From the IMG/VR virus record IMGVR_UViG_3300032243_001028, positions 71,097 through 135,096 of that record: a DNA stretch of 64,000 nucleotides. One strand, given 5' to 3'. Origin of the DNA: a virus (taxonomy: Duplodnaviria; Caudoviricetes). Positions 36,000 to 64,000 of the stretch are shown one piece after another. The notes under the pieces are model-generated. The model made no database searches. It was given only the letters and a program-made list of their open reading frames with translations, and was not told the origin of the DNA. A program made the position numbers and the translations under genes. Positions within the stretch are counted from its first letter, which is position 1. The number at the start of each line of letters is the position of its first letter.

Positions 36000-36052
36000 A
36001 ATAGATACTATCAGATATTTTAAAACTTTATTTAAAAAAGTCAATAGTATCT
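36000..36052. promoter_or_regulatory. AGATACTAT-N32-ATAGTATCT element upstream of helicase (copy 1 of 3)
   Basis: 9-bp inverted repeat 36003-36011 / 36044-36052; 22 bp identical to 59857-59878. Confidence 0.7.
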
Positions 36053-46462: not shown

Positions 46463-46536
46463 CGCGGGGTAGAGCAGCTCGGTAGCTCGCTAGCGTCATA
46501 AGCTAGAGGTCGTAGGTTCAAATCCTGCCCCCGCAA
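46463..46536 (+). tRNA. tRNA-Met(CAT), initiator-type scaffold, CCA not encoded
   Basis: Full cloverleaf CGCGGGG...CCCCGCA-A with C1:A72 mismatch, anticodon arm CTAGC-GTCATAA-GCTAG, T arm GTAGG-TTCAAAT-CCTGC. Confidence 0.93.
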
Positions 46537-46704: not shown

Positions 46705-47000
46705 GGGGATGACTGGTTTCGACAGTTGTCTTGATGTTAGTGAAGCAAGCAGAGATGACAGTATCTCTTGAATCTGTCAAAACAATAAATGCTAATACAT
46801 CTGCATACGCTCTAGCCGCGTGATTTAATCGCAACGCTTAGGCCCCTGACAAAGCACTAGTTCTAGGTGGGCAGTCAGGTTTTAAATAAATAGAACAAAT
46901 CCTCTCGTAGTGCCCTGTAGTACCGTGGTTGGTAAAACCTAAGCTTGTAGAAGAATAACTGAATGTCAATTGGACCGGGGTTCGATTCCCCGCATCTCCA
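46705..47000 (+). ncRNA. ssrA: tmRNA; tag ANTSAYALAA (46791-46823)
   Basis: 5' GGGGATG pairs with 3' CATCTCC-A including G3:U70; GGTTTCGAC near 5' end; T arm CGGGG-TTCGATT-CCCCG; resume codon after ATAAAT; tag ends YALAA. Confidence 0.95.
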
Positions 47001-47058
47001 CGCTTGTAGACAAAGGAGCGTAAAGCGGTCTACCCGTCCTAGGCAACGGAATCTCCAA

Positions 47059-51961: not shown

Positions 51962-52392
51962 TGCCAAATGTGTACACGGGCGGGACGTTCGATCTTTTCC
52001 ATAGCGGGCACGTTAGGTTGCTTAAGCGTCTTAAACAAATAGCTGGTAATGGAAAAGTTATTGTAGCTATTAATACTGATGACTTTATTGAAAAGTTTAA
52101 AGGTAAGAAACCTATTATGTCTGAGCAGGAACGTTATGATCTGATCAGTGCTTGCAAATACGTAGACGAAGTTCGAATCAATAAAAGTGGAGAAGATTCT
52201 AAACCTACTATTATTGCCTACCCTAAACCAGATATTGTTGCCATTGGATCTGACTGGGCTGCTAAAGACTATTACAAACAGATGGACTTCACCGAAGAGT
52301 GGTTGGATCAAAATGATATTGTGTTGATTTATGTTCCATATACCGAGGGAATCAGTACAACAGATCTTAAGAAAAGAATTAAAGATGGATGA
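51961..52392 (+). CDS. TagD/RfaE-like cytidylyltransferase
   Basis: GTFDLFHSGH, CKYVDEV, GSDW, YTEGISTT. Confidence 0.9.
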   Translation: MPNVYTGGTFDLFHSGHVRLLKRLKQIAGNGKVIVAINTDDFIEKFKGKKPIMSEQERYDLISACKYVDEVRINKSGEDSKPTIIAYPKPDIVAIGSDWAAKDYYKQMDFTEEWLDQNDIVLIYVPYTEGISTTDLKKRIKDG

Positions 52393-52585
52393 TGAAGAAG
52401 CTAGAATCATCTGGATGGCCGGAGAAGAAGTTGGTCGACGTGAGGAACGTACTCGGATCATTGAGGCACTTGACAAACTTGCTTGTAATAATGCATACTG
52501 TAGGGAAGCAAAACTAATGCGGACTCATGCAGGTTGCAGGGCTGTTCGTGAAAATATTGAATTGATTGAGAAAGATGCCTTATAA
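52385..52585 (+). CDS. hypothetical protein
   Basis: GRREERTRII motif common in freshwater phage small ORFs. Confidence 0.55.
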   Translation: MDDEEARIIWMAGEEVGRREERTRIIEALDKLACNNAYCREAKLMRTHAGCRAVRENIELIEKDAL

Positions 52586-52970
52586 AGATAAAGATAAACA
52601 ACGTAAGTATCAGGTTGAGTGGCTTAAAGCTAACCGCAATGCATTCATAGTTTCTCGTGGCGGATGCTGTGAGAGGTGTGGATCAGTTGATTCTTTAGAA
52701 GTTGATCATATAGACAGAAGTCTAAAGACTATGAACCCGACTAGCATATGGTCACGTACACCTGAAATACAGGAAAAAGAGTTGGCTAATTGCCAAGTAT
52801 TGTGTTATGGTTGTCACAAGAAAAAAACTAGTGATGAACGACGTATAGATAATGCTCATGGGATTTATGCAAAATATAAAGAGGGCTGTAGATGTACAGA
52901 CTGTCGTGCTGCCAATGCTGAACGTTCAAGAATCGCTAGAGCTAGACGTAAAGGATCTACAAATGAATGA
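52575..52970 (+). CDS. HNH endonuclease
   Basis: CERCG...LEVDHID...NCQVLCYGCHKKK; HG...Y..GCRCTDC tail. Confidence 0.88.
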   Translation: MPYKDKDKQRKYQVEWLKANRNAFIVSRGGCCERCGSVDSLEVDHIDRSLKTMNPTSIWSRTPEIQEKELANCQVLCYGCHKKKTSDERRIDNAHGIYAKYKEGCRCTDCRAANAERSRIARARRKGSTNE

Positions 52971-53142
52971 AGAAAACGCTAGAGCAATGGCGGTTGGCTG
53001 GGAAGCTGGTGAAGCTGCAGAGCAAGAGCGTATTATTAACTTGCTAAAGGATCGTCACAAGGCTTACACTGCTAAGCATTACATTGATGGCATCATGGAA
53101 ATGGAAGAGCTTATTGCTCTTATCAAAGGAGAAGACGAATGA
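52963..53142 (+). CDS. hypothetical protein
   Basis: EQERIINLL...LIALIKGE motif. Confidence 0.55.
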   Translation: MNEENARAMAVGWEAGEAAEQERIINLLKDRHKAYTAKHYIDGIMEMEELIALIKGEDE

Positions 53143-53203
53143 GTTTTGTATATGGTCTTCTAATCGTGCTGGTTGTGTTTGGGGTTGCGAGTGTGTTTGA
53201 TAA

Positions 53204-53410
53204 ATGAGCAAAGACGATCGTTTAGATGTAACTAAAAAAGATATTGTTGCTGTCATAGCTATTATGGTTTTAATGCTTGGCTCTTTGGTTTATGGGTACT
53301 TTTTGCTAAAGCATGAGCCTAAGCAACCACCTATGACCTGTTGGGATAAGTATAAGAATTCTTCGGAGCAGATTGCTATTCAAGCTTGCGAGGTACATAC
53401 CGGTGAGTAG
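53204..53410 (+). CDS. small membrane protein
   Basis: TM helix then CWDKY...AIQACE. Confidence 0.6.
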   Translation: MSKDDRLDVTKKDIVAVIAIMVLMLGSLVYGYFLLKHEPKQPPMTCWDKYKNSSEQIAIQACEVHTGE

Positions 53411-53558
53411 TGAAGCAAAGATGATGATTGCTACTGGATTAGTGTTGGCTAGTCTTGCTACTTTGATATATACTTTTCAGCATTACACCTGTAAAACTGT
53501 TGAATATCAAAATTTGAGTGGATCTCACTCGGAAAGCGTGTGCACATGGAAAAAATAA
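53403..53558 (+). CDS. small membrane/secreted protein
   Basis: GTG start overlapping previous stop; TM helix, two Cys. Confidence 0.45.
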   Translation: MSSEAKMMIATGLVLASLATLIYTFQHYTCKTVEYQNLSGSHSESVCTWKK

Positions 53559-53749
53559 ATAAAGATGCTTTGATTGCTTTTCTATTCTGGTTTGGGTATC
53601 ACGAGACAGTCGCAAGCATTATTTCCTACGGAACCGGTTTTAACTGGTGGATCCTTCAAGTTTTTGTTATACTTATATCTCTACTGATGTTTGGTTTGAC
53701 ATATGGTAGCCAAACGAAGATGGATACGAAGTGGTATGAAAATGATTAA
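53546..53749 (+). CDS. small membrane protein
   Basis: Two hydrophobic segments. Confidence 0.5.
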   Translation: MEKINKDALIAFLFWFGYHETVASIISYGTGFNWWILQVFVILISLLMFGLTYGSQTKMDTKWYEND

Positions 53750-54068
53750 GGATATTAAAACTGATGAATATGATCAAGAAGTGGTTGATGGTGGCGGGTT
53801 GGTACTTGTCGATTTCTGGGCTACTTGGTGTGGCCCTTGTAGGATGGTTGCTCCTATCCTTGATCAGCTTGCTGAAGAGTATTCTGAACAGCTAAAGATT
53901 GTAAAGGTAAATGCAGATGAAGAGCCTGAGTTATTGGATCGCTATGGTATTAGCTCTATTCCTACTATATTGGTATACAACAATGGGGAAATAGTTAAGA
54001 CTATTATTGGTGCTAGGCCTAAACCTGGCATTCTAAAAGATTTGGCAGAATATCTGGGTACGGAATAA
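53742..54068 (+). CDS. trxA: thioredoxin
   Basis: VDFWATWCGPCRM, SIPT. Confidence 0.95.
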   Translation: MIKDIKTDEYDQEVVDGGGLVLVDFWATWCGPCRMVAPILDQLAEEYSEQLKIVKVNADEEPELLDRYGISSIPTILVYNNGEIVKTIIGARPKPGILKDLAEYLGTE

Positions 54069-54102
54069 TATATTAAATCGACCATAGTGCCTGTCAAACC
54101 AA

Positions 54103-54137
54103 AGCCCCTCGGGAGTTATGACCCGGGGGGTTTCTTA
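54103..54137 (+). terminator. intrinsic terminator
   Basis: CCCCTCGGG...CCCGGGGGG followed by TTTCTT. Confidence 0.75.
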
Positions 54138-54169
54138 TTGAGTAAGTAAAGTCTTGATAGAATTACTGT

Positions 54170-54673
54170 ATGACTACCTCAATTGATACAGACAAACTAC
54201 TAATGTGGGCCCATGATGGTCGGGTCGTTACCGCCGACGTCCGTAAGGAGGGTGATGGATACTCATGTGAGTGGTGGGTATCAGGTAATTTTGGGGGGAG
54301 TTTACAGGTTATGGCAGTTATGAACTTTCCGATCTATGGAAATAATGAAGGTGAAGCTCGTCAACGTGCAGGATTCTTACTGGAGGACGTTCTGTATATC
54401 GCCAAAACTTTCTATGGAGGAGATGGCGTAGTAGGTAATATCGTTCCGGACGCTAAAAAGAGGGTTGCTTTGGCAATGATGCACCTTGCTGGTCATTGGA
54501 AGAATATGAGTGTTGGGTTATCAACTATCGAACGTACAGCAGAAGAGTATAAGTTTTTGAAACAATTTGGTATTTCAAATGTAGCTCAGATCATTGCAAA
54601 TCTTGAGGGGATTAGTTCCGTTAGAACTATTCACGAACGAATCTTTTTGGCTAAACAAAAAAAGTTAATTTAG
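54170..54673 (+). CDS. hypothetical protein with C-terminal HTH-like segment
   Basis: VAQIIANLEGISSVRTIHERIFLAK. Confidence 0.6.
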   Translation: MTTSIDTDKLLMWAHDGRVVTADVRKEGDGYSCEWWVSGNFGGSLQVMAVMNFPIYGNNEGEARQRAGFLLEDVLYIAKTFYGGDGVVGNIVPDAKKRVALAMMHLAGHWKNMSVGLSTIERTAEEYKFLKQFGISNVAQIIANLEGISSVRTIHERIFLAKQKKLI

Positions 54674-54709
54674 CTTGACAAATGTTGTAGACGTCAGTAT
54701 GGTTTGAGT

Positions 54710-55189
54710 ATGCAAACATTTCTACCATATAAGGACTTTGATCAGTCCGCACAAGTGCTAGACAATAAGCGATTGAACAAGCAGATTCTAGAGGGTTATC
54801 AAATCCTCAATGTTCTATCGAGTGACGACCCTAAAGCCGGATGGCGTAATCACCCTGCAGTAAAAATGTGGCGTGGGCACGAAAAATCATTGCTGGCTTA
54901 TATTATGTGTTGCGTTAAAGAAGCTGACAAACGCGGCATAAAAACTATAAATAACGTAATTAATATCAAGAATTTGTTCTTAGCAAATTATGATAATTGG
55001 GGTAATGGGCTGCCTAACTGGTTCCATGACTCTGATAAAAGCAGTCGAGTTATGGCTACACACAAGGCAAATCTTTATAAAAAAGATCCTGTGTATTACT
55101 TTCAGTTCTCCAGTTCTATGAGTGATCCAGATAATAAACCGTGTTGTGAAGGTTGTAATTATTATTGGGTGACTCATGCCGAGAAATAG
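54710..55189 (+). CDS. pyrimidine-dimer DNA glycosylase / endonuclease V-like (MSMEG_6728 family)
   Basis: MQTFLPY, LDNKRLNKQILE, HPAVKMWRG, HKANL..KDP.YY; TTGACA promoter upstream. Confidence 0.85.
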   Translation: MQTFLPYKDFDQSAQVLDNKRLNKQILEGYQILNVLSSDDPKAGWRNHPAVKMWRGHEKSLLAYIMCCVKEADKRGIKTINNVINIKNLFLANYDNWGNGLPNWFHDSDKSSRVMATHKANLYKKDPVYYFQFSSSMSDPDNKPCCEGCNYYWVTHAEK

Positions 55190-55385
55190 TAGGGATCAAC
55201 CGTTTAGCTATAGAGCTACTGTAAAAGCAAGATCTAAACTTCCTAAAAGAAGTCAGTTCCCACTAACTTTATTTATGTTAACTTTGTTAGTTTTATTCAT
55301 TTGGGTGCTACATACAATATTTAAATGCTTTTGGATTCTTCTGTGGCCAATAAGAAAATTAATTAATAAATTGAAAAAGAAGTAA
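55176..55385 (+). CDS. small basic membrane protein
   Basis: Hydrophobic core flanked by Lys/Arg. Confidence 0.5.
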   Translation: MPRNSRDQPFSYRATVKARSKLPKRSQFPLTLFMLTLLVLFIWVLHTIFKCFWILLWPIRKLINKLKKK

Positions 55386-55424
55386 AAGAAAACCCCCATC
55401 CTCGTCAGGTGGGGGCTTCTTTCT
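55385..55424. terminator. bidirectional intrinsic terminator
   Basis: AAAGAAAACCCCCA...TGGGGGCTTCTTTCT between convergent blocks. Confidence 0.75.
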
Positions 55425-55478
55425 ACCGGTCAGGTTTATTACGTGTTTTAATTACACCTTTATCTCCGGGCTAGCTTA

Positions 55479-56012
55479 TTACGCCTTCTTGGTAGGAACT
55501 ACCTTCTTGACGGCGGATACAACTTTTGCTGCAACAGTCTTTTTAGGAGCTGCTGTGAAAAGCTTTAGTGGATCAACTAGACGCTCGAATGGAAGCAAGT
55601 GTGCTTCAACTCCTGCAAAGTTCTTTCCCATTGTGGCAACAGTCATGTGGAGGTGGGCCCCGGTGCTTGCGGATCCGCTTGGTGTGTTCTTACCGCCACC
55701 AACTAGACCTACAACAGTCTGCCCACCAACAACTTTGTCACCCTTCTTTAGGGTAGGTGCTACTGCGAGGTGTGCGTATAGAACCCAGTGCTTGCCATCT
55801 GCTGATGAGTGTACAAGAATGTGTCCAAGAACATCAGTCCATTCAACAAGACCAACTGTGCCATCGCAGATAGCCTTGATTGGGCTCTTCTCCTTTGGGT
55901 GCCAGTCCTGTCCACGGTGTGGACGTCCATTACGATATGGTGCTAAGTTTCCAAGCTCGTCTCCGCGAAGCTTTGGATCAAATGGTTCGAAGTATGTCAC
56001 TTCAACTGCCAT
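55479..56012 (-). CDS. M23 peptidase (endolysin)
   Basis: HRGQD (HxxxD), YAHL, STGAHLH (HxH); AAGGAG RBS. Confidence 0.9.
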   Translation of the reverse strand: MAVEVTYFEPFDPKLRGDELGNLAPYRNGRPHRGQDWHPKEKSPIKAICDGTVGLVEWTDVLGHILVHSSADGKHWVLYAHLAVAPTLKKGDKVVGGQTVVGLVGGGKNTPSGSASTGAHLHMTVATMGKNFAGVEAHLLPFERLVDPLKLFTAAPKKTVAAKVVSAVKKVVPTKKA

Positions 56013-56053
56013 AATTTTGTCTCCTTAATAGTGATTTGGTGTTACAGTTAATT

Positions 56054-56254
56054 TTACAACGCTTTATTTAAGGCTAGTTGAGCTTTAGCGTAGTTCTTTC
56101 GGTAGGTGTGGATAAACCCTTTTTGAAAGTTGCGGCAGACATCCATATTGTAGATACGTGGTCTGCCTTTGATGTACTCTCTCCAAGCTTCTAATGCAAG
56201 TAGAGAGACATCTTTGTGCTTTATAGAGTAGTAGTGCTTTAAATAAGCAAACAT
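56054..56254 (-). CDS. hypothetical protein
   Basis: Start overlaps the stop of the upstream gene. Confidence 0.5.
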   Translation of the reverse strand: MFAYLKHYYSIKHKDVSLLALEAWREYIKGRPRIYNMDVCRNFQKGFIHTYRKNYAKAQLALNKAL

Positions 56255-56454
56255 TACTCGTCATCCTCGTCTTTTTCACGTCTAATAGGGAATGTAAGTA
56301 CCCAGATTAGAAGTGTTACTCCAATTAGTTTTCCTACGATATCTCTGGCAGATCCTTCTAGAAGTACCCAACCTAAAGCTAGACCTAGTAAGGTCCAAGC
56401 TTGGTCAAGTAGGTCTTTTAGTAGGTCTGATAGGAACTTTCCTAGTTTTTTCAT
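56254..56454 (-). CDS. two-TM membrane protein (holin-like)
   Basis: Two TM helices with acidic tail, near lysin. Confidence 0.6.
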   Translation of the reverse strand: MKKLGKFLSDLLKDLLDQAWTLLGLALGWVLLEGSARDIVGKLIGVTLLIWVLTFPIRREKDEDDE

Positions 56455-59339
56455 TACTTTCCTGTCTTCCTGTTTATTCTGTTTGTTTTGTTAGATGAAC
56501 CGCCTGAACTGGCGGTAGCTAGAGCTGCTGCTTGGGCAATTTGTCCAACAACAAGGGTGGTTACAACAAGGTTTTGAGCCTTTTTACGGGCTTTTGGTGA
56601 AATATCGGCTCCAACGTTGCCTACTAAGTTCAAAACGTTAGCAATGGCTACTGCAGCCTGTCCAACACCCGGAATATTGGCTAGGGACTCGTCAACGACG
56701 ATGTCATCTTGCTGTGCAGCTAGGTAAAGGGCGTCTAGGGCTTGATTGTACTCTGGAGAGCCTTCTGTGGCTGTATTGAAGGTTTCTAGAGCAGCTGCTA
56801 CAAGTAGTGTGGCTTGTTCTGGGCTAAGTTCTGTTGGGTCAATCTGAGCTAAATCAATGTCCTGTAAGTTGCTTGCATCTAGATTTGTTGGAATATCTGC
56901 TGAGCCCTGTGGTGTGCTGAAGATGTCGGTGGCTTCTTTGATGAGGCTTGGGATTGTGAGAATGGTAGCCTGGGCAACTTCCAATGAAGACTGAAATGAT
57001 GTTGATGAGTTGTCGGTGGTGATCTGAGCTTGCTGCGCCGTGCTTGATGCTTCGTTTAATGTGGTGTCGGCTTGGGTTGAGTTTGCTGCAGCTAGATCTG
57101 CGTCAACTTGAGCTTGGGCTTCGTTAGAAGTTGCAGAGCTTAGCAAGCTTGTTTGTGTTTTTAGATTTGCTTGGGCTTGAGACTGAGCTGAGGATGCTGC
57201 TTCCAATGATGTCTTTGCTTGTTCGTTGGAAGTTTTAGTCTCTTGGTTTTTTTGTTCTTCTATGTTATAAGCAAGTTGAGCTGCCTGTAATTGTGCATTA
57301 GATCCAGCTAAATACTGGGTTGCTTCGTTTGCAGTTTGTTCAGCTGATGCCAAATTTTGCTGGAATTCTAATCGCACGCTTTGTGCTTTCTGGAAATTTG
57401 AATCTGCTTCGTTAGAAGTTGCCTGGGCTTGGTTGAATGCGTTTTGTTCGACGTCCAGATCTGAAGAAAGGGCGTTCAAGGTGGTGGCAGTATCTATAAC
57501 TTGGTTGTAAGCAGTTGTAGAGTTCTGAGCTGCTTGTTGTTGATCTGCTTGTGCTAACTGCCAGTCTTCTTCTGCTTGTTGGTTTGCAAGGATGGTTGCG
57601 TTGTAGTAGATCTGTGCGTTCTTTAGGTAAGGCAGTAGAGCAGAATCGTTGATGAGTGGATGAACTTGATCAGGAATTACTTCAGTGGTGTAATAGGTTT
57701 CGGTAGTGTAGGTAGTCTGCTCAACGTAGGTGATTGTAGTAGTTGCCTGAGTGCCTAGGTAAGCTGCTGGAACAATTTGGAAGCCTATGGTTGGAGTTGC
57801 GTAGTAAAGCCAAACATTAGCTCCGCCGCCGTTCTCATAGAAGTAAAGAGTGATGGTGTGGGAAGAACCTGCTTCGAAATGTAGGTAGTTAGAAGTTGAA
57901 CCGCCTCCACCTTTATCGAACCAGTCGTTGATGATGAGGTTTCCGTCTATGTAAAGTTGAACTCCGTCATCTCCCGGTGCGTAAAAACGAACGTCCTGTG
58001 TGTCTGGGAATGAAATGTTTCCCGTGAAACGTACTAAGACGCGGTCATACCTGCCTGAATTGAGAACATTGCCTCCGCCCCATTGGTAGTTGATGTTTGG
58101 AACGTTGAGGGTTGCAATAGGGGTTTCGTTAGAAGTTGGAAGAGGAGGGCGGCTGCCGTAGTTCTGCCTGTTGAATGAATCAGCGGTTAGTCCACCAGTA
58201 AGGGTGGTTGTTGTAACTGGAACAAGAGTGGTCGTTGGAACTTGCCTGGTGTGCTCTTGTTCGTAAGTTGCTGGTGTCCACGTTGGATCTGGGATGAGGT
58301 TATTGTCATAGTTCCATTGTGCTTGGTCTAGATTCTGTTGTCCTGCTTGAAGATTGGTGCGTGTTAGGTTTACGTTCTGTTGCGTGTATAGATACCAGTC
58401 ATAAGCTTGGTTGTACTCATCTAGGGTTTGGTTGTAGTGAGCAACGGCGGAATTGTAGATCTCCCTGGATGAGTTAACTTCTGATTGCTTCGTTTGAAGT
58501 TGGACGGTAGCTGCAGCTAAGTTTTTCTGTGCTTGTGCTTTGTTGGAAGTTGCAGCTGAAAGATTTCTTTCTGCTTGTGCTTTCTGTTCTTCTGCATTTG
58601 TAAGTGTTTGTTGTGCTTGGGCATATGTTGACGATGCTGCGATGGCGTCAGTTTGACGTTCGTTTAAAGTTTGTAGTGCCTGAGCTGTGATGGCTTTCTG
58701 CTGCGTCAGTGCTTCCGTCGTCTTCGTTAGAAGTTCCTGTGCCTGGAGCGCACTTGCATCTGCTTCTGTGGCTTGAGTTTGAGCTTGAGCTACGGCGGCC
58801 TTCTGAACTTCTAATTGCTGCTTTGTGGCTTCGTGGGAAGTTTGCGATGAGCTGAGGATCGCTTTCTTATCCTTGGCATTTTTGTCAGCAAGAGTTTGTG
58901 CTTTTAAAGCATAGGTAAGAGCAGTTTTAGCATTGTTATAAGTGTCTAGGGCTTTTTCGGTAGCAGAAACGTTAGTTTTTAAGGTTTGAATGGCTGTTTG
59001 AGCTTTTTTGATGGCTGTTTGAAGTTCTGGGGAATCATTTGTAGGTTGTTTGCTGATTAGTGTGTCAAGTTGCGTGTTGTAATCGGCTAGTGTAGACTTT
59101 AGAGTATTAAGATCCTCAACTGAAGGAGTTAGAGATGATTGTAACCGTGAATTTAGATAGTTTTTGGGTTGGTTTAGTAGTTGGTTGGGTTTCACTGATT
59201 GTTGTAAGCTCGATTGCTTCTGTTCTAATAAACCGAAAGAAGAAGTAGCTAAAGCTGATTCTGCGTAGCAGATCGGTAATCCCGAAAGAAGTGTCACAAT
59301 AATAATTTGTGGCACTTTTTTTGATCTGTTGCGTTTCAT
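56454..59339 (-). CDS. exported coiled-coil protein with central PA14 domain and C-terminal membrane-associating region
   Basis: Signal peptide; A/Q-rich heptads; PA14 motifs INYQWGGG, DDGVQLYIDG, YFYENGGGA. Confidence 0.85.
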   Translation of the reverse strand: MKRNRSKKVPQIIIVTLLSGLPICYAESALATSSFGLLEQKQSSLQQSVKPNQLLNQPKNYLNSRLQSSLTPSVEDLNTLKSTLADYNTQLDTLISKQPTNDSPELQTAIKKAQTAIQTLKTNVSATEKALDTYNNAKTALTYALKAQTLADKNAKDKKAILSSSQTSHEATKQQLEVQKAAVAQAQTQATEADASALQAQELLTKTTEALTQQKAITAQALQTLNERQTDAIAASSTYAQAQQTLTNAEEQKAQAERNLSAATSNKAQAQKNLAAATVQLQTKQSEVNSSREIYNSAVAHYNQTLDEYNQAYDWYLYTQQNVNLTRTNLQAGQQNLDQAQWNYDNNLIPDPTWTPATYEQEHTRQVPTTTLVPVTTTTLTGGLTADSFNRQNYGSRPPLPTSNETPIATLNVPNINYQWGGGNVLNSGRYDRVLVRFTGNISFPDTQDVRFYAPGDDGVQLYIDGNLIINDWFDKGGGGSTSNYLHFEAGSSHTITLYFYENGGGANVWLYYATPTIGFQIVPAAYLGTQATTTITYVEQTTYTTETYYTTEVIPDQVHPLINDSALLPYLKNAQIYYNATILANQQAEEDWQLAQADQQQAAQNSTTAYNQVIDTATTLNALSSDLDVEQNAFNQAQATSNEADSNFQKAQSVRLEFQQNLASAEQTANEATQYLAGSNAQLQAAQLAYNIEEQKNQETKTSNEQAKTSLEAASSAQSQAQANLKTQTSLLSSATSNEAQAQVDADLAAANSTQADTTLNEASSTAQQAQITTDNSSTSFQSSLEVAQATILTIPSLIKEATDIFSTPQGSADIPTNLDASNLQDIDLAQIDPTELSPEQATLLVAAALETFNTATEGSPEYNQALDALYLAAQQDDIVVDESLANIPGVGQAAVAIANVLNLVGNVGADISPKARKKAQNLVVTTLVVGQIAQAAALATASSGGSSNKTNRINRKTGK
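57120..58735 (-). repeat. six copies of AACTTCNAACGAA on the minus strand
   Basis: Cores (CGTTNGAAGTT on +) at 57122, 57224, 57410, 58127, 58491, 58725. Confidence 0.9.
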
Positions 59340-59409
59340 ATGAGATATCTCTCTATAGAGGTGTATCTCTCCCGAATCTATTTTACCGCAGAATTGGGGT
59401 TATGACCTT

Positions 59410-59820
59410 TTAATCTAGATCTTTAGTGATATGGTCTGACCACTCTTTTATGGTCATTTCTCTGTGTTTTGGGCTTGTCCCGTGAGAAAAGCCAATTAGC
59501 AGCCAGCTTGTAATTCCGAATAATGCGCTGAAATAGCCAATTAAGACATAAAGATAGAAAGAGCCTAAATTGAAACAAATTGCCAAAAGTGCCGTAGATA
59601 GAAGAATTGAGAAAATAGGCCAAATGTATGATTTTGTCCAATACCAGATCATTACCGGCCAAGCTGCCGCACTTAAAACTATCGAAAGAATGATGTCTGG
59701 CGGATATTCGTCACCCTTAAACGTTGAGAAAATCCATGGGTTTCCAGAGGCTTTTTTATGTAATTTTTTGTACAGAAGAACCTCGGATTCGTCAAAATCT
59801 GGTGTTTCACGACAGCTCAT
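59410..59820 (-). CDS. membrane protein (about 3 TM)
   Basis: Multiple hydrophobic segments; AAAGGA RBS. Confidence 0.65.
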   Translation of the reverse strand: MSCRETPDFDESEVLLYKKLHKKASGNPWIFSTFKGDEYPPDIILSIVLSAAAWPVMIWYWTKSYIWPIFSILLSTALLAICFNLGSFYLYVLIGYFSALFGITSWLLIGFSHGTSPKHREMTIKEWSDHITKDLD

Positions 59821-59856
59821 CGGGGGGTCCTTTCGAGGGATCTTGTGTACAACTCT

Positions 59857-59966
59857 AATAGATACTATCAGATATTTTGAAAAGTTATTGCAAAAAGTGA
59901 ATAGTATCTATGGTGGAGATACTATCGGAAAAAACAAAAGTTTTTGTAAAAAAGTTGATAGTATAA
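59857..59966. promoter_or_regulatory. two tandem AGATACTAT-N32-ATAGTAT elements at the divergence point
   Basis: 59860-59868/59901-59909 and 59917-59925/59958-59966. Confidence 0.7.
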
Positions 59967-60124
59967 CTAATCCAATATACACTTTATGGTTTATTGCAAC
60001 TATATTTTCCCTTAATGCGGAATTTTTTCTCTATACGCGTAGTAAAAAAAGGTTGAAATAAACCAATAAATGGGTTTTTAGTTGTGTTATAGTTGTTTCG
60101 TAAGGTATCATTTTTAATTATCGA

Positions 60125-60574
60125 TTGGAGATAAAATTGGAAGAAAATAAGGATGCAATGAGCTTTTTCGATTTCTCGGAAGAAGAAGCTTTACAAGTTG
60201 CAGAAGAAGAAGTTATTCGAACTAGAGAACGTGATGGACGGATCTGTATCTGTGGACATCCAAATACTAGACACTCAACCTATGCTGATGTTGTAGCTTG
60301 TAATCCAACTAGGATGGCTTGCGATTGTAAGCAGATTCGTCTAGTTTTGGAAGTATCTGACACAAGACTGTTTTTGAGAAAAACTAATGGATCAGGAACT
60401 TCACACGCTTTGAGCAAATCTATGTCTAAGGCAAAATCTCTTGGAGTAGAGATTAAGTGGTTGATCGATCCTAAATGCGATAGATGTAATGTGGTAAAGC
60501 CAATTAGTCCAGTAGCGATCTCTCAAAATGGAAGACACGGATATAACGCGTTTCTCTGTGTTGACTGCCGATAA
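60125..60574 (+). CDS. Cys-rich zinc-binding hypothetical protein
   Basis: CICGH...H...C...CDC and CDRC...CVDC; start codon uncertain. Confidence 0.7.
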   Translation: MEIKLEENKDAMSFFDFSEEEALQVAEEEVIRTRERDGRICICGHPNTRHSTYADVVACNPTRMACDCKQIRLVLEVSDTRLFLRKTNGSGTSHALSKSMSKAKSLGVEIKWLIDPKCDRCNVVKPISPVAISQNGRHGYNAFLCVDCR

Positions 60575-60598
60575 GATAACCGATAGGATAAATACATA

Positions 60599-61084
60599 AT
60601 GACAATAGATAGACCAATAGTTCAGACCTACGCTGAGTTCAGATACACAAAGCAAGGTCAATACCTAGAAGTTAAATACCTAGATGAAGCAGTTCAGGTC
60701 GCTCGGGATGTAATCTACAAAAGCATCGGCGTTAGAGAAGATGTTACTGGTAGAGCAACTTACTCAATTAGTGCCAAAGGCACGATTGTTAAAGTCTGGA
60801 TTGAGCAATACATGAACACCATTAGTGAGTTCAATGCCAATGAAGTTATCCAGAAGATTATGGAAGAAATAGTCAAAGCAGAAATTGCCAATGTTGAGCT
60901 GGAAAGCGTTTATGAATATGAAAATCTAAATGGTGAGATACTTATTCCTTGCCCCAAGTGTTCAGGTTCAGGCTCAATTCGTAGAGTCGATGGTGAGGAC
61001 TGTCCTCAATGCGAGGGCTGGGGAATAACTTTCTCCAATGATCCAAAACTTAAAATCACCCCTCTTGTTTCGAAAGGTCTGTAA
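60599..61084 (+). CDS. hypothetical protein with DnaJ-type CxxCxGxG zinc finger
   Basis: CPKCSGSG...CPQCEGWG. Confidence 0.7.
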   Translation: MTIDRPIVQTYAEFRYTKQGQYLEVKYLDEAVQVARDVIYKSIGVREDVTGRATYSISAKGTIVKVWIEQYMNTISEFNANEVIQKIMEEIVKAEIANVELESVYEYENLNGEILIPCPKCSGSGSIRRVDGEDCPQCEGWGITFSNDPKLKITPLVSKGL

Positions 61085-61566
61085 TGGAATATATAGTTTT
61101 AGAGATTTCCGATATCGAATTGGAAGTTATGCCAATGCACGAACTCCCCGGACTTAAAGTTTTGAGAGTGTTAAGTATGCCAGCCGATATGCAACGATTG
61201 AAAATGTCAGTGGACTTGCTTAGACTAGCTTTACGCAACTCTGAAGATTGGAACGGGGTTATAAAATATCTAACAATGGGCGAGCTAATTAAAGTTATCG
61301 ATCAATGGATGGAAAAAAGTCAAGAAGAGTCAAATCGTCAAGCCGAAGAAGATGACTACTACAATGAACTTTCTAGAGAAGAGAAAGAGTTTGAAGATGA
61401 TCTGGAGTTCGAACGAACAGCTATGGAAGAGTACGAAGAAGAAATTGACGAAGATACTCCAGAACTAACTCCGGATATGCTTTACGAAGCATTCGTGTCT
61501 TACATAGAAGAATATCCAGAACCCCCGACACCAGAGGATTTCAATGAGGGCGAAGACCCCGAATAG
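61084..61566 (+). CDS. hypothetical protein with very acidic C-terminal half
   Basis: E/D-rich tail. Confidence 0.7.
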   Translation: MEYIVLEISDIELEVMPMHELPGLKVLRVLSMPADMQRLKMSVDLLRLALRNSEDWNGVIKYLTMGELIKVIDQWMEKSQEESNRQAEEDDYYNELSREEKEFEDDLEFERTAMEEYEEEIDEDTPELTPDMLYEAFVSYIEEYPEPPTPEDFNEGEDPE

Positions 61567-61570
61567 GCCA

Positions 61571-61708
61571 ATGTGCGGTTTTTGTATGACCGGGCACCAC
61601 GAAAATTGCAAAGCAGAGATCAAATATTATGACAACATTTGGTATTGCAATTGCACCAAATGTCATCCAGATAAAGAAGAGGAAGTAGAAGAAACCAATG
61701 AGCATTAG
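61571..61708 (+). CDS. small Cys/His-rich protein (45 aa, not in ORF track)
   Basis: MCGFCMTGHHENC...WYCNCTKCH. Confidence 0.55.
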   Translation: MCGFCMTGHHENCKAEIKYYDNIWYCNCTKCHPDKEEEVEETNEH

Positions 61709-61904
61709 TGAACCGCTTAGAGATTCTGTTGGAAGATTTATAATCGATCCACCTGAACCTCCTAAAACTTGGCCCCCTACTATTTGGGGACTAGATGATG
61801 ATTTAAAAGAACAACGCAGAATTAGAGTTTTGTCAGATAGAAATGCTAGGTTAGAAAAAACTCAAGAATGCTGGGAGATATGCAATTGCAAGAAAAAGAA
61901 GTAG
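61698..61904 (+). CDS. hypothetical protein
   Basis: RDSVGRF motif, shared with the end of the next gene (KDSRGKF). Confidence 0.5.
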   Translation: MSISEPLRDSVGRFIIDPPEPPKTWPPTIWGLDDDLKEQRRIRVLSDRNARLEKTQECWEICNCKKKK

Positions 61905-62338
61905 AGTTGGTAACTGCAAAAGAAGCAGGTAAAGCTCTTTACGTTACTGTCGGTATGATTCATTATTGGATTAGAAAAGGCAGACTAAAAAAGTATAAAG
62001 ACCCCAATGGTTGGAACTTTTTGGTCGATCTCGATGAAGCTCGGTCGGCGTCTAAATGGTTAAACCGTGTTCTAGAAAATCACCCGGATTTAATAACTTT
62101 GGATGAAGCTGCTGAAATGCTTTACCTAAATCGAAGAGCATTAAATTACCACATCAACCAAGGACGACTACAAAAGTATTATGTTTTAGGGAACAATAAA
62201 TACTATTTAGTTCATAAAGATGAAGTTACTAAACTTTTTTATCGGGAGTCTTTTTATAAAAACGAAGAGAGAAATCAAAAACTTCGTGAGAGAGCCTTGA
62301 CGCAGAAAAAAGACAGCAGAGGCAAATTTGCCAAGTAG
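61868..62338 (+). CDS. tandem MerR/excisionase-like HTH DNA-binding protein
   Basis: LVTAKEAGKALYVTVGMIHYWIRKGRL and LITLDEAAEMLYL...INQGRL; start uncertain. Confidence 0.8.
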   Translation: MLGDMQLQEKEVELVTAKEAGKALYVTVGMIHYWIRKGRLKKYKDPNGWNFLVDLDEARSASKWLNRVLENHPDLITLDEAAEMLYLNRRALNYHINQGRLQKYYVLGNNKYYLVHKDEVTKLFYRESFYKNEERNQKLRERALTQKKDSRGKFAK

Positions 62339-62376
62339 TTTATTTTAAAAAGTAAAACTTCAAAACTTTACTTAGT

Positions 62377-62414
62377 CCCCCCTGTAAGCCTTATGGTTTC
62401 GGGGGGATTTTTTT
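62377..62414 (+). terminator. intrinsic terminator
   Basis: CCCCCCTG...CGGGGGG followed by AT7. Confidence 0.7.
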
Positions 62415-62610
62415 GTTTCTAAACCAGAAAGGGTAGCGTTCTCACACCTCACGCCTAAAAAACTTTTCAAACTGCCCCCATAATGAAAACTATCAACCTT
62501 ATATAAAAAAAGGTTGCGGGAAGGCTCCCCTTATCGGCGTTTACAAAAACAAACGCAAAAGCGGTCGGGTGGAGTCACGAGCCTCTCCCCGGTTGACTCC
62601 ATCCGATCCA

Positions 62611-63824
62611 AACTTCGAACGAAGGAACATATGACAGACGATAGCTCAGATCTAGGATCCGGATCCTCAACTTCAAACGAACGTCCATTGGAAGTTAAGG
62701 CCATCCCTTCAGATCCTTTCGAAACTCCAGAGCTCGAAGCTCCTATTATAGAAATCAATGAACCTTTAAACCTACGTCCAGACCTTTCACTCCTCGGCAT
62801 TGAAGAAAGCGACCGCGGCGTCTGCGAAGATACGTTTGAAAACCGACAACTTCTCCGCCGTGCGAAGTTTAACTGGATACCGGTCTACGCATCCAACGGA
62901 GTTCCAACGGGATTGATTCAAGCTATCTCATCAGAGATGGCAACCGAGAAACGTATCCTCTCTCTTGCTGAGAAGAAGCCGATCCTCACAGATCCAACGA
63001 ACAAAAACTCAGATTATCTAACGGGCCTCGATCTTCTAGCTGAAGAAGCGTCCGACTACATCTGTCCACCTTGGGTCATCGGCGCAACCCGTGCTTATAT
63101 AAAAGAACAATCCGCGCCCCCAACGTCTGGAAAGAGAAAGCCGGCCGCACTTCCAACGAGATGTTCCAACGTAAAAGACGATGGGATCCGCTGCCAGCTC
63201 TGGTCTTCAGGACGTTTACAAGATGACGGTCTTTGCCGCATTCACTTGAGAAGCGTAAAACACAGACCAGGCGATGACATCGAACGAGCTCGTCAGAAGT
63301 TATTCCAGGCAGCTCCTTACGCCGTCGACGTTCTCGAACAAATGATGGAGTTCGCTGAGAGCGAACCGGTAAAGCTTAAAGCTGCAACCGAGATCTTGGA
63401 CCGAGCCGGAGTACGTGGAGGAATGGAAATTGATACCAACATAAATCTTGATGTCAGACCAGCCGCAAGCATCATTGCTGAACGTCTGAACCGACTTGCA
63501 ACGAACGCAATTGAAGCTGCGTCTAAGCTCAGCGAGGCAGGCATCCTCATAACTTCCAACGAAGTAGAACCGAACCAGGAAGCTGCAGCTGCACCCGCTG
63601 CCGGATCTACAACTTCCAACGAAGACGTCATCGACGCAGAGATCCAGGAGGACTAACCGACATGCACAGCTCAGATCCGCAACTTCTAACGAACGCACGT
63701 GAACTCGCATCCCAGCTCGCTGCAGACGTCAACCAAGCGTCTACTAGACTAGAACATATAAGACTTACAGCCAGAGCCAATGAAGCAGCGAATTTGCTGC
63801 AGGCCCTGGAGAAACTTCTAACGA
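62611..63824 (+). repeat. six copies of AACTTCNAACGA on the plus strand
   Basis: At 62611, 62669, 63551, 63611, 63681, 63813. Confidence 0.9.
62631..63656 (+). CDS. terminase small subunit-like protein
   Basis: GAAGGA RBS before ATG at 62631; C..C..C..H finger then A..AVDVLEQMM...SEPVKLKAATEILDRAG, a pattern seen in TerS-like proteins. Confidence 0.55.
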   Translation: MTDDSSDLGSGSSTSNERPLEVKAIPSDPFETPELEAPIIEINEPLNLRPDLSLLGIEESDRGVCEDTFENRQLLRRAKFNWIPVYASNGVPTGLIQAISSEMATEKRILSLAEKKPILTDPTNKNSDYLTGLDLLAEEASDYICPPWVIGATRAYIKEQSAPPTSGKRKPAALPTRCSNVKDDGIRCQLWSSGRLQDDGLCRIHLRSVKHRPGDDIERARQKLFQAAPYAVDVLEQMMEFAESEPVKLKAATEILDRAGVRGGMEIDTNINLDVRPAASIIAERLNRLATNAIEAASKLSEAGILITSNEVEPNQEAAAAPAAGSTTSNEDVIDAEIQED

Positions 63825-63868
63825 CCGGAGAGATTGATGACGAGAGCGAACCGCGAAGCCTTTCTTAA
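63662..63868 (+). CDS. small helical hypothetical protein
   Basis: GGAGG upstream; 68 aa. Confidence 0.6.
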   Translation: MHSSDPQLLTNARELASQLAADVNQASTRLEHIRLTARANEAANLLQALEKLLTTGEIDDESEPRSLS

Positions 63869-64000
63869 AGAAGCCGAAAACCATATCGGATACCAAACAC
63901 GCATGAACAAAGGTTCAACGTACGGAGAACTTGTTGGACATCCGAACCGTGATTGGAACGGCAGCTTCATCGACGTGATCGCACGAACCGTTGGTTTGAA
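63837..64000 (+). CDS. CHAP/NlpC-like protein N-terminus, truncated by window end
   Basis: FLKEAENHIGY...STYG...DWNGSFID resembles CHAP start (A...IGY...YG...WC..FV). Confidence 0.45.
   Translation, partial: MTRANREAFLKEAENHIGYQTRMNKGSTYGELVGHPNRDWNGSFIDVIARTVGL

Follow-up and report, generated by a model that had tools for sequence, protein, structure and literature searches.

We analysed a 64,000-nucleotide stretch of viral DNA, referred to as the window, which forms the last 64 kb (genome positions 71097-135096) of the single 135,096 bp contig IMGVR_UViG_3300032243_001028, and within it a 13-bp word that recurs in two arrays facing away from each other between positions 57120 and 63824. 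The contig ends overlap by 123 bp, giving a circular assembly of 134,973 bp, and the source is an uncultured freshwater actinophage of ~135 kb. Positions are those of the window unless the genome is named. On the left, the whole minus-strand array lies in a minus-strand gene (56454-59339) for a 961-aa secreted coiled-coil/PA14 protein, which is rich in Q, A, T, S and N and has a periodicity of ~34 amino acids (aa), with recurrent 102-nt spacings. The centre is occupied by a plus-strand operon (60125-62338) that is free of sites and encodes a zinc-finger-like 149-aa protein (with three close relatives only), a DnaJ-type zinc-finger protein, an acidic protein and a 68-aa protein. Its last gene (61868-62338, plus strand) encodes a 156-aa protein with two duplicated Xis/BldC/MerR-type winged-helix (HTH_17) domains, called the helix-turn-helix (HTH) protein below. 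On the right, a plus-strand gene that probably encodes a small terminase subunit (the TerS-like gene; 62631-63656, 341 aa from its ATG) carries three exact copies of the word in insertions and one in its leader.

The 12-mer AACTTCNAACGA is present in 12 exact copies in the window, six on each strand; dinucleotide shuffles of the window held 0.04 copies on average, and 12 was reached in 0 of 100 shuffles. An exact count and a mismatch scan found these copies, and the near matches listed with them, at the places given in the original prediction, which had been made from the sequence alone, and added a further copy with one mismatch at 57325. As had been claimed, 11 of the 12 extend to GAA, the exception being the copy at 63813, which ends in GAC. 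Across the circle, the 13-mer AACTTCNAACGAA occurs exactly 16 times (10 plus, 6 minus). All 16 occurrences fall within genome positions 128216-3533, a stretch of 10.3 kb or 7.6% of the genome, and none in the other 124.7 kb. The same stretch contains 9 of the 12 one-mismatch versions of the 13-mer and 11 of the 36 with two mismatches, and copies within it are spaced 50-1500 bp apart. The first 56.9 kb of the window hold 0 exact copies and four with one mismatch (4394, 23521, 51070 and 52692), while the 3.6 kb between the arrays (59027-62610) hold none with one mismatch or fewer, which bears out the absence of exact copies noted earlier for the upstream ~57 kb and for the centre.

All six exact minus-strand copies lie inside the PA14 gene, on its sense strand. 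Four read AACTTCTAACGAA (57120-57132, 57408-57420 and 58125-58137 in a frame that encodes TSNE, and 58723-58735 in the ELLT frame), one reads AACTTCCAACGAA (57222-57234, TSNE frame) and one AACTTCAAACGAA (58489-58501, QLQT frame). They are accompanied by co-oriented degenerate copies with one mismatch to the 12-mer at 57325, 57886, 58232, 58540, 58660 and 58831, and by one with two mismatches at 59015 (to 59026). The plus-strand array begins with AACTTCGAACGAA at 62611-62623, in the leader of the TerS-like gene and directly 5' of its GAAGGA ribosome-binding site (RBS); the earlier statement that one copy abuts an RBS refers to this site and holds. Inside the gene, exact 13-mers are found at 62669-62681 (N-terminal insertion) and at 63551-63563 and 63611-63623 (C-terminal insertion), all three in the TSNE frame, with the co-oriented one-mismatch copy CACTTCCAACGA at 63148-63159 between them. 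A 68-aa gene adds an exact 13-mer at 63681-63693 (QLLT frame) and an exact 12-mer, with C as its 13th base, at 63813-63824 (KLLT frame). Because the assembly is circular, the plus-strand array, which starts at 62611, runs on across the contig junction, with further exact copies at genome positions 471, 626, 1358, 1415 and 3521. This continuation round the contig end, and the probable genome end at the centre of the arrays, lay beyond the view of the original prediction.

The array is polar. Between 14 and 15 of the 16 exact copies lie inside open reading frames (ORFs), and all 15 counted as in-gene are in sense orientation, so that the copies point outward along transcription, as first described. 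An inverted pair at genome 471+/488-, which includes an antisense copy, lies in an endolysin-like gene. One way to divide the word is AACTTCN + AACGAA(N), as a 7-bp direct repeat with two AAC-led half-sites 7 bp apart, and the word also holds a small palindrome, CTTC-NAAC-GAAG. In an alignment of the 16 copies, A or C stands 5' of the word and T is never found directly 3' of it; base 14 is G in only 9 of the 16.

Selection on the array acts at the DNA level. The 16 exact copies encode TSNE (7), xLxT (7) or NFQR (1), with one intergenic, so the observation that copies fall in different frames of unrelated genes now extends to all three frames, five unrelated genes and one intergenic copy. When the codons of the five array-bearing genes were shuffled synonymously (n = 2000), a mean of 0.87 and a maximum of 5 copies appeared, compared with the 15 observed. 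The entire predicted proteome contains nine TSNE peptides, seven of them encoded by the two array genes, which suggests that the peptide follows from the DNA word.

Across relatives at 76-98% protein identity, the N position of the word is free and the other 12 positions are fixed. Motif columns are 91.5% invariant (n = 130, N column included) in a four-genome alignment of the right arm, compared with 66.2% of the other columns (n = 2751), and 92.6% invariant (n = 108, specified positions only) in a three-genome alignment of the left arm, compared with 75.1% (n = 2754). The N column is invariant in 4 of 9 cases (44%) in the relatives' alignments. Placement in three frames, the insufficiency of codon shuffles and the drift of N while its 12 neighbours are kept all uphold the claim that selection is on nucleic acid and not on protein. 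Single sites are gained and lost between relatives while the array persists, and some degenerate copies in the PA14 gene are exact in relatives and vice versa; this is the site turnover that the original prediction had suggested looking for. Within the TerS-like gene, alignment A1 places the sites in two insertions, one N-terminal and one C-terminal, that are missing from motif-free homologues. These segments (SSTSNERPLEV at the N terminus, ITSNEVEP...STTSNEDV at the C terminus) are encoded by the motif copies themselves and are probably disordered. A DNA-level signal can thus shape proteins strongly, since the TerS-like insertions exist only where the motif exists.

To place the array among relatives, we compared 40 IMG/VR loci with a homologue of the TerS-like protein (taken as its 380-aa ORF), whose labels begin with L, and a set of whole records, whose labels begin with G. 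The array is specific to one lineage: it is conserved throughout a clade, and the sister clades are entirely without it. AACTTYNAACGA is present in L008-L023, with minus copies running leftward in the PA14 gene and plus copies running rightward, and weakly present in L041, which has four T-type sites. It was not found in L024-L040, L042-L047 or the phage DSL-LC01. The bipolar layout is therefore kept in related uncultured phages, as the original prediction required of a functional array, with a C/T variant at position 6 that is mostly C in some lineages and mostly T in others. In whole records, the sites are gathered in one stretch of 8-12 kb, with 20 of 21 in G001, 16 of 17 in G002 and 15 of 15 in G003; G004 has 10 of 15 in the array stretch, three in the gap between the TerL and portal genes and two elsewhere. 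The pattern read backwards, which served as a control, gave 0-2 matches per record, and the three motif-free records gave 0, 1 and 0 sites in 135, 120 and 133 kb.

Among the 71 sites of the four whole records, 49 were classed as sense, 9 as antisense and 13 as intergenic with a crude ORF caller, several of the antisense calls in G004 being artefacts of that caller. The inverted pair, 17-19 nt apart, is a recurrent exception to the polarity and is kept in L008, L013 and L023. The left array travels with the PA14 gene, at 3.6 to ~9.5 kb from the probable genome-end junction across relatives, which suggests a link to the gene rather than to a DNA end. No equivalent bipolar array was found in the first 14 kb of the cultured phage Cece or in the motif-free lineages. 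Two motif-free loci have other repeated words: in L029 (11240-16938) and L034, the one-sided polar word ACGGCAAGC has 11 and 8 copies, respectively, every one of them on the plus strand and 3' of the TerS-like gene and some immediately next to an ATG, and a promoter-like GCATGGAAAAA-N-ACCC word occurs in divergent pairs.

The HTH protein is a credible candidate for the binder of the word, one of two that the original prediction had named; it is predicted to be a duplicated winged helix of the Xis/BldC type, and its occurrence goes with that of the motif. The 61868-62338 product matches Pfam HTH_17 (E 1.4e-9) as well as excisionase and MerR models, and its two halves are homologous to each other (42% identity over 31 aa, E 3e-8). 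An AlphaFold2 model (pLDDT 76) contains two E-H-H-E-E-H units. In a Foldseek comparison, each half matched 6ama, 6amk (BldC-DNA) and 4j2n (phage Pukovnik Xis) with a probability of 1.00, a TM score (target) of 0.66-0.71 and a root-mean-square deviation of 1.8-2.1 A over 48-49 aa. The whole protein matched the Enterococcus DNA-binding protein TraN of pIP501 (probability 0.87-0.93), which we take to have two excisionase-like domains. No overall Foldseek E-value was below 0.001, and in sequence the protein is not significantly similar to BldC (E 0.24 and 0.99). Together, the Pfam match, the model and the Foldseek results point to an Xis/MerR-like winged-helix fold without the dimerisation coiled coil of MerR.

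No homologue of the protein was found among 50,697 phage records, and a large protein collection held only seven close homologues. Four of 141 crude ORFs track the motif among whole records: each is present in all three motif-bearing records compared (G001, G003 and G004) and absent from the three motif-free ones, of which G011 and G013 were compared whole and G012 over its first 120 kb. Besides the HTH protein, the set comprises a 267-aa DUF1281_C-like protein and ORFs of 137 and 61 aa, and the HTH protein alone among them has a DNA-binding domain. In L008-L010, L013-L016, L019 and L021-L023, the gene position immediately ahead of the junction is taken by a homologue of the HTH protein, with a tandem or a single domain, and none is present anywhere in the complete motif-free records G011-G013. 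The TerS-like protein, the other binder proposed at first, fared less well. It is 60-67% identical to its counterparts in sister lineages, and its residues 45-150 and 170-290 are invariant in motif-bearing and motif-free lineages alike. We rejected it as the main model for the reader of the word because these N-terminal and core stretches are the same with or without the motif (alignment A1).

The TerS-like gene most likely starts at the ATG at 62631, after the GAAGGA RBS. A TerS-like identity for its product is probable and not proven, given short profile matches, the lack of a family model and a poor structure prediction. Two small terminases of known structure, 7joq (E 8.6e-4) and 6w7t (E 0.27), are matched by a profile of 16 homologues, along a helical segment of 47 residues only; the protein has no Pfam, PHROG or NCBIfam match, an Atlas search returned only unnamed viral clusters, and the AlphaFold2 model has an unusable mean pLDDT of 50.6. 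Homologues with 38-41% identity are gene 1 in the cultured Microbacterium phages Cece, Big4, Zooman, Pumpernickel and A3Wally, where they start at nt 62-63 of the linear record and are present in two copies per record. The two copies in Cece are part of a direct terminal repeat of 18,079 bp, and the Cece annotation calls the gene terminase small subunit. The cultured phages and the present genome also share a gene order, in which gene 1 (here the TerS-like gene) is followed by small genes, among them the 68-aa ORF, and by a CHAP/NlpC-type endolysin-like gene. Since the gene is gene 1 at the left end of these relatives, the centre of the arrays probably holds the genome-end junction. By synteny, the left genome end or terminal-repeat boundary would lie near 62,530-62,590, and the first plus-strand copy, at 62611, would then be ~25-80 nt inside it.

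This region also contains a conserved element (62518-62607, plus strand), made up of the box GGGAAGGCTC at 62518-62527 and a hairpin with 14-bp stems at 62564-62577 and 62594-62607, to whose loop the box is complementary. The loop is ~15 nt long and contains an invariant CTCTCCCC, and the stem measures 13-15 bp across relatives. The hairpin was identified in 25 distinct relatives, where the stems differ yet stay complementary (-16.6 to -28.9 kcal/mol in single-sequence folds), and in all relatives the hairpin/box element lies 24-113 nt 5' of the ATG. At one position, the box (GGGAAGRGNC, ~60 nt further upstream) and the loop appear to co-vary (GGC/GCC vs GAC/GTC). In Cece, the physical left end falls between two complementary boxes, CCTCTCACC, 6 nt after the end, and AAGAGGG, immediately outside the repeat; the IMG/VR contig of L012 starts inside the hairpin loop. 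The element may be a terminase cutting or recognition structure, or an RNA leader pseudoknot. Rfam gave no match in the window between 55 and 64 kb, and RNAalifold recovered 6 pairs only, on a poor MAFFT alignment of the junction.

A scan of IMG/VR with the junction-loop 14-mer for contigs ending there returned 119 stretches, mostly chance matches, and the 80 that were listed all had full 200-nt flanks. Contigs from the sequencing runs X1 and X3 span the whole 52000-64000 stretch, which has no bearing on physical ends. In runs X2 and X7, the summed contig depth to the right of 62426 (to 64000) is ~2x that to the left, a difference that is not readable as a terminal repeat, since this conserved gene collects contigs from several related phages. 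Many metagenomic relatives can be annotated with the help of the link to cultured Microbacterium phages and the conserved hairpin/box, whatever the mechanism of the arrays.

The arrays follow two transcription units that diverge from the central operon. The leftward unit consists of a 136-aa membrane ORF and the PA14 gene, followed downstream on the minus strand by two 66-aa membrane-like ORFs and an M23 peptidase gene (55479-56012). The rightward unit comprises the TerS-like gene, a CHAP-endolysin-like gene and small genes. Between them, the central operon is closed 3' of the HTH gene by a terminator-like G+C hairpin and T run (62378-62412, plus strand), which was read from the sequence; its loop is too long for the hairpin scanner, hence its absence from the scan. 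A divergent promoter region (59821-60124) separates the leftward unit from the central operon and contains GATAGTATCT inverted repeats that are shared with 36003-36052. The shared element, ~50 nt with GATAGTATCT / AGATACTATT inverted repeats, is found at 59860-59926, before the PA14 operon, and at 36003-36052, before the leftward helicase/polymerase replication genes, and it may be the operator of a second regulator or a promoter class.

Another promoter class, AAACTTGAC[AT]-N17-18-TAnnnT, occurs 16 times on the plus strand at genome 3515-19127, before many small genes, in what looks like the early region. Three more promoters of this class lie on the minus strand at genome 24822-25712, in the ~3.4 kb gap between the TerL and portal genes, the same gap that holds the three extra 13-mer copies in G004; several copies of the promoter are followed by TAGTTAGGTA. 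The right array ends exactly at the first promoter of this class, whose spacer contains the copy at genome 3521. The units covered by the arrays are promoter-poor and hold packaging and lysis-type genes, and the arrays extend over neither the presumed early region nor the structural operon. A promoter reading of the word itself was rejected, as no conserved element follows the sites at a constant spacing in the 16-copy alignment.

We propose that the motif is a lineage-specific array of ~25-30 asymmetric 13-bp candidate protein-binding sites, AACTTYNAACGAA, and that the likeliest reader would be the phage's own 156-aa tandem winged-helix protein, encoded just before the probable genome-end or terminal-repeat junction. 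Produced from the site-free central operon, the protein would bind the co-oriented sites in both of the units that diverge from it, and would control the outward transcription of the TerS/endolysin unit on one side and of the PA14/membrane/M23 unit on the other. The control could take the form of an orientation-dependent, stoperator-like block of elongating RNA polymerase, in its simplest version a multiple roadblock, with operator-type action at the TerS leader in addition. The outcome would be the timing, most simply a delay, of the packaging and lysis genes. We infer from the sequence evidence that the protein binds the motif and thereby affects transcription, and likewise the sign and timing of that effect. 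Our estimate of the probability that the arrays are operators or stoperator-like sites for this protein, controlling the two flanking packaging/lysis operons, is roughly 45%. Stoperator-like sites were among the options listed in the original prediction, and they are the best fit of those.

Cluster A mycobacteriophages offer a known system for comparison. Their repressors bind more than 20 asymmetric 13-mers whose orientation follows transcription, and reversing a site abolishes the repression of elongation (PMC9283540). The likenesses to the L5 gp71 and TipsytheTRex repressors described there are threefold: an asymmetric 13-bp word is repeated in an actinobacteriophage (more than 20 copies there; here 16 exact, 9 one-mismatch and 11 two-mismatch copies in 10.3 kb), its orientation is tied to transcription (here 15 of 15 exact in-gene copies are sense), and one polypeptide with two DNA-binding modules reads it, as demonstrated there and proposed here (PMC9283540). 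Unlike the temperate Cluster A phages, in which the sites are described as genome-wide and mostly in short intergenic gaps or promoters, the present sites are confined to 10.3 kb and lie mostly in ORFs, in two operons that flank a probable genome end. Also in contrast to Cluster A, no lysogeny module was recognised here, and the candidate reader is a predicted duplicated Xis/BldC-type winged helix instead of the HTH plus Stoperator domain of L5 gp71.

Short conserved words oriented with genes are reportedly also known as start-associated sequences in Cluster K and as 17-bp repeats in Cluster O mycobacteriophages. The Cluster K sequences are said to sit directly before start codons, whereas here one of 16 copies (62611) abuts the RBS and ATG. 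The fold predicted for each half of the HTH protein resembles that of BldC and Pukovnik Xis, and BldC is described as binding direct repeats head-to-tail in a fixed direction (PMC5859096). The BldC repeats are 9 bp long and packed in one operator; in contrast, the present word is made of two 7-bp units, and single sites are scattered 50-150 bp or more apart. A MerR-like phage repressor, D29 Gp36, is likewise reported to bind direct repeats and to repress genes downstream of its site (PMC12266134).

Several observations weigh against the operator interpretation. Known stoperators differ from these sites, which are inside ORFs and confined to 7.6% of the genome, and no lysogeny module was recognised for which the genome would have to be silenced. 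Even L008, a relative with 98% identity, does not keep the promoter-spacer site at genome 3521. L011 keeps 12 sites, but a DUF7417 ORF stands where the HTH gene would precede the TerS-like gene, in a record that is 22% complete; L041 is without the HTH protein despite its four T-type sites. Lineages with a single-domain homologue (L016, L019 and L022) retain the full 13-mer, so an arrangement of one domain per half-site is not required. The motif-bearing loci belong to a single clade, so that phylogeny confounds the co-occurrence of motif and HTH gene, and the C/T variant at position 6 shows no tracking of the recognition helix that is visible by eye. Lastly, the CTTC-NAAC-GAAG palindrome, together with a variant that keeps a C-G or U.G pair, makes an RNA or single-strand reading possible.

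If the operator interpretation is right, stoperator-type control would not be peculiar to Cluster A mycobacteriophages and their repressor, and it would have originated independently, with an Xis/BldC-type winged helix, in large uncultured phages of abundant freshwater actinobacteria. What is new relative to known oriented operator or stoperator arrays is the family of the candidate reader, the placement of the sites and their visible imprint on coding sequences. Literature searches on stoperators, on BldC and direct repeats, on DSL-LC01, on freshwater actinophages and whiB, on the cultured relatives and on start-associated sequences, supplementary files aside, brought up no account of the word, of bipolar arrays embedded in ORFs beside a terminal-repeat junction or of phage members of this HTH family. 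The relatives amount to a natural experiment, as sister lineages with the same genes either have or lack the word and the protein, and sites turn over within the clade that has them.

The position of the arrays also raises the alternative that they are genome-end or packaging signals, at which terminase (the TerS-like protein, perhaps with the HTH protein as a Nu1-like winged-helix module) would dock to organise concatemer cutting, repeat duplication or the start of packaging. Comparators exist in the R sites of lambda cosB, which are bound by gpNu1, a MerR/Xis-like winged helix, in the pac sites inside the terS genes of P22 and SPP1, and in the short repeat arrays beside the terminal repeat of T7. 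As in such systems, the present sites lie in and beside a TerS-like first gene at the left genome end, with repeats on both sides of the junction. The gene 1 position in Cece, Big4 and Pumpernickel, the Cece terminal repeat, the shared gene order, the hairpin/box before the ATG with the first motif copy just inside it, and the orientation of both arrays away from the junction all agree with this. However, the sister lineages share both the TerS-like protein, at 60-67% identity, and the hairpin, and have neither the motif nor the HTH protein, so packaging needs neither. Terminase sites would also be expected within a few hundred bp of the cut, whereas these extend over 10 kb, do not co-vary with the N-terminal and core regions of the TerS-like protein and have no comparable array in the first 14 kb of Cece. 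The left array follows the PA14 gene, 3.6 to ~9.5 kb away, and not the junction. The packaging or pac sites named in the original prediction thus do not hold up as such, and we regard a packaging role as unlikely.

An RNA-level or single-strand signal would explain the strict sense orientation and the copy that abuts a ribosome-binding site. The word would then act in the mRNA as AACUUCNAACGAA, possibly as a CUUC-NAAC-GAAG stem-loop, and its reader would be an RNA-binding protein or RNase that sets stability or translation. Folds mostly pair positions 3-6 and 11-13 (unpaired 0.14-0.45) and leave 7-10 open (0.73-0.83), and the clade variant from C6 to T6 keeps the pair with G11 (C-G to U.G). 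Against this, the stem is only 3-4 bp, with base 14 being G in just over half of the copies, no compensatory changes were seen, and the mean accessibility of the motif (0.49) does not differ from that of control 13-mers (0.54, sd 0.17). The sole motif-tracking gene with a nucleic-acid-binding domain encodes a winged helix of the double-stranded DNA type, and the inverted pair conserved in L008, L013 and L023 includes an antisense copy. An RNA signal is, in our judgement, just as unlikely as packaging.

Doubtful, and to be seen as something of a long shot, is a direction code at the genome-end junction, in which co-oriented words would be read by the tandem winged-helix protein as a one-way barrier or guide for a DNA-tracking machine such as the terminase, the replisome or the ejection apparatus. 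If true, it would be a phage-sized analogue of Ter/Tus or KOPS and not a transcription device, under selection strong enough to force TSNE insertions into a terminase subunit and a secreted protein.

The more general proposal of a polar guide or barrier for replication forks (Ter-like or primosome signals), a translocase (KOPS-like) or a RecBCD/AdnAB-type nuclease (Chi-like) draws on the same geometry. A bipolar layout round one point is that of Ter traps and origin-proximal polar words, and forks leaving the centre would find every site on the lagging-strand template. This proposal is quite improbable, though. Chi and KOPS are 5-8 nt long, and the present word, with 12 specified positions, is far longer; it is also local and not genome-wide, with no exact copy in the other 124.7 kb. 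With the polarity of E. coli Chi, only enzymes that approach the junction would recognise the sites, and not those starting from ends made there. Motif-free relatives share the primase-helicase, polymerase and recombination genes, with 66-99% identity, which leaves no replication protein that co-varies with the motif. Origin iterons are no better a parallel, since the copies are 50-1500 bp apart over 10.3 kb and the primase/helicase genes are more than 30 kb away, and no finding speaks in favour of the partition or replication signals considered in the original prediction. That the word has no function and is a by-product of repeated TSNE peptides in low-complexity proteins or of a recent duplication, as the 7 of 16 copies that encode TSNE and the periodic PA14 coiled coil with its recurrent spacings might suggest, is scarcely credible in view of its three frames, its five unrelated genes and non-coding DNA, the failure of codon shuffles to explain the counts, the one free position among 12 fixed ones and the seven of nine proteome TSNE peptides in the two array genes, where the DNA word appears to drive the peptide.

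The remainder of the genome is that of a tailed actinophage, according to PHROG and Pfam scans of crude ORFs. The scans identified two WhiB-like genes, tape measure, portal, and major head and tail proteins, TerL (genome 22998-24395), a family A polymerase, a primase-helicase and a ribonucleotide reductase. The genome has a G+C content of ~40%. Its only DNA-level match among the 50,697 phage records is Actinomycetia phage DSL-LC01, described as a metagenome-assembled phage from a lake (PMC10611076), and the sequencing runs that contain sequence of the phage are freshwater or lake metagenomes. None of the scanned ORFs gave a PHROG 'repressor' match, and the sole recombinase is a 218-aa resolvase/invertase-like serine recombinase. 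The window also encodes a full-length tmRNA (46705-47003, plus strand; Rfam RF00023, 123.8 bits, E 6.6e-48) and a tRNA (46463-46536, plus strand). Between the portal and head genes, we observed two giant ORFs of 3234 aa (genome 30846-40550) and 6251 aa (genome 40986-59741). Domains recognised in the first are RNase_T exonuclease, UvrD-like helicase, ArdC-N and zincin (MPTase-PolyVal), and those in the second are exonuclease and GNAT acetyltransferase; the products of both may be injected anti-defence proteins.

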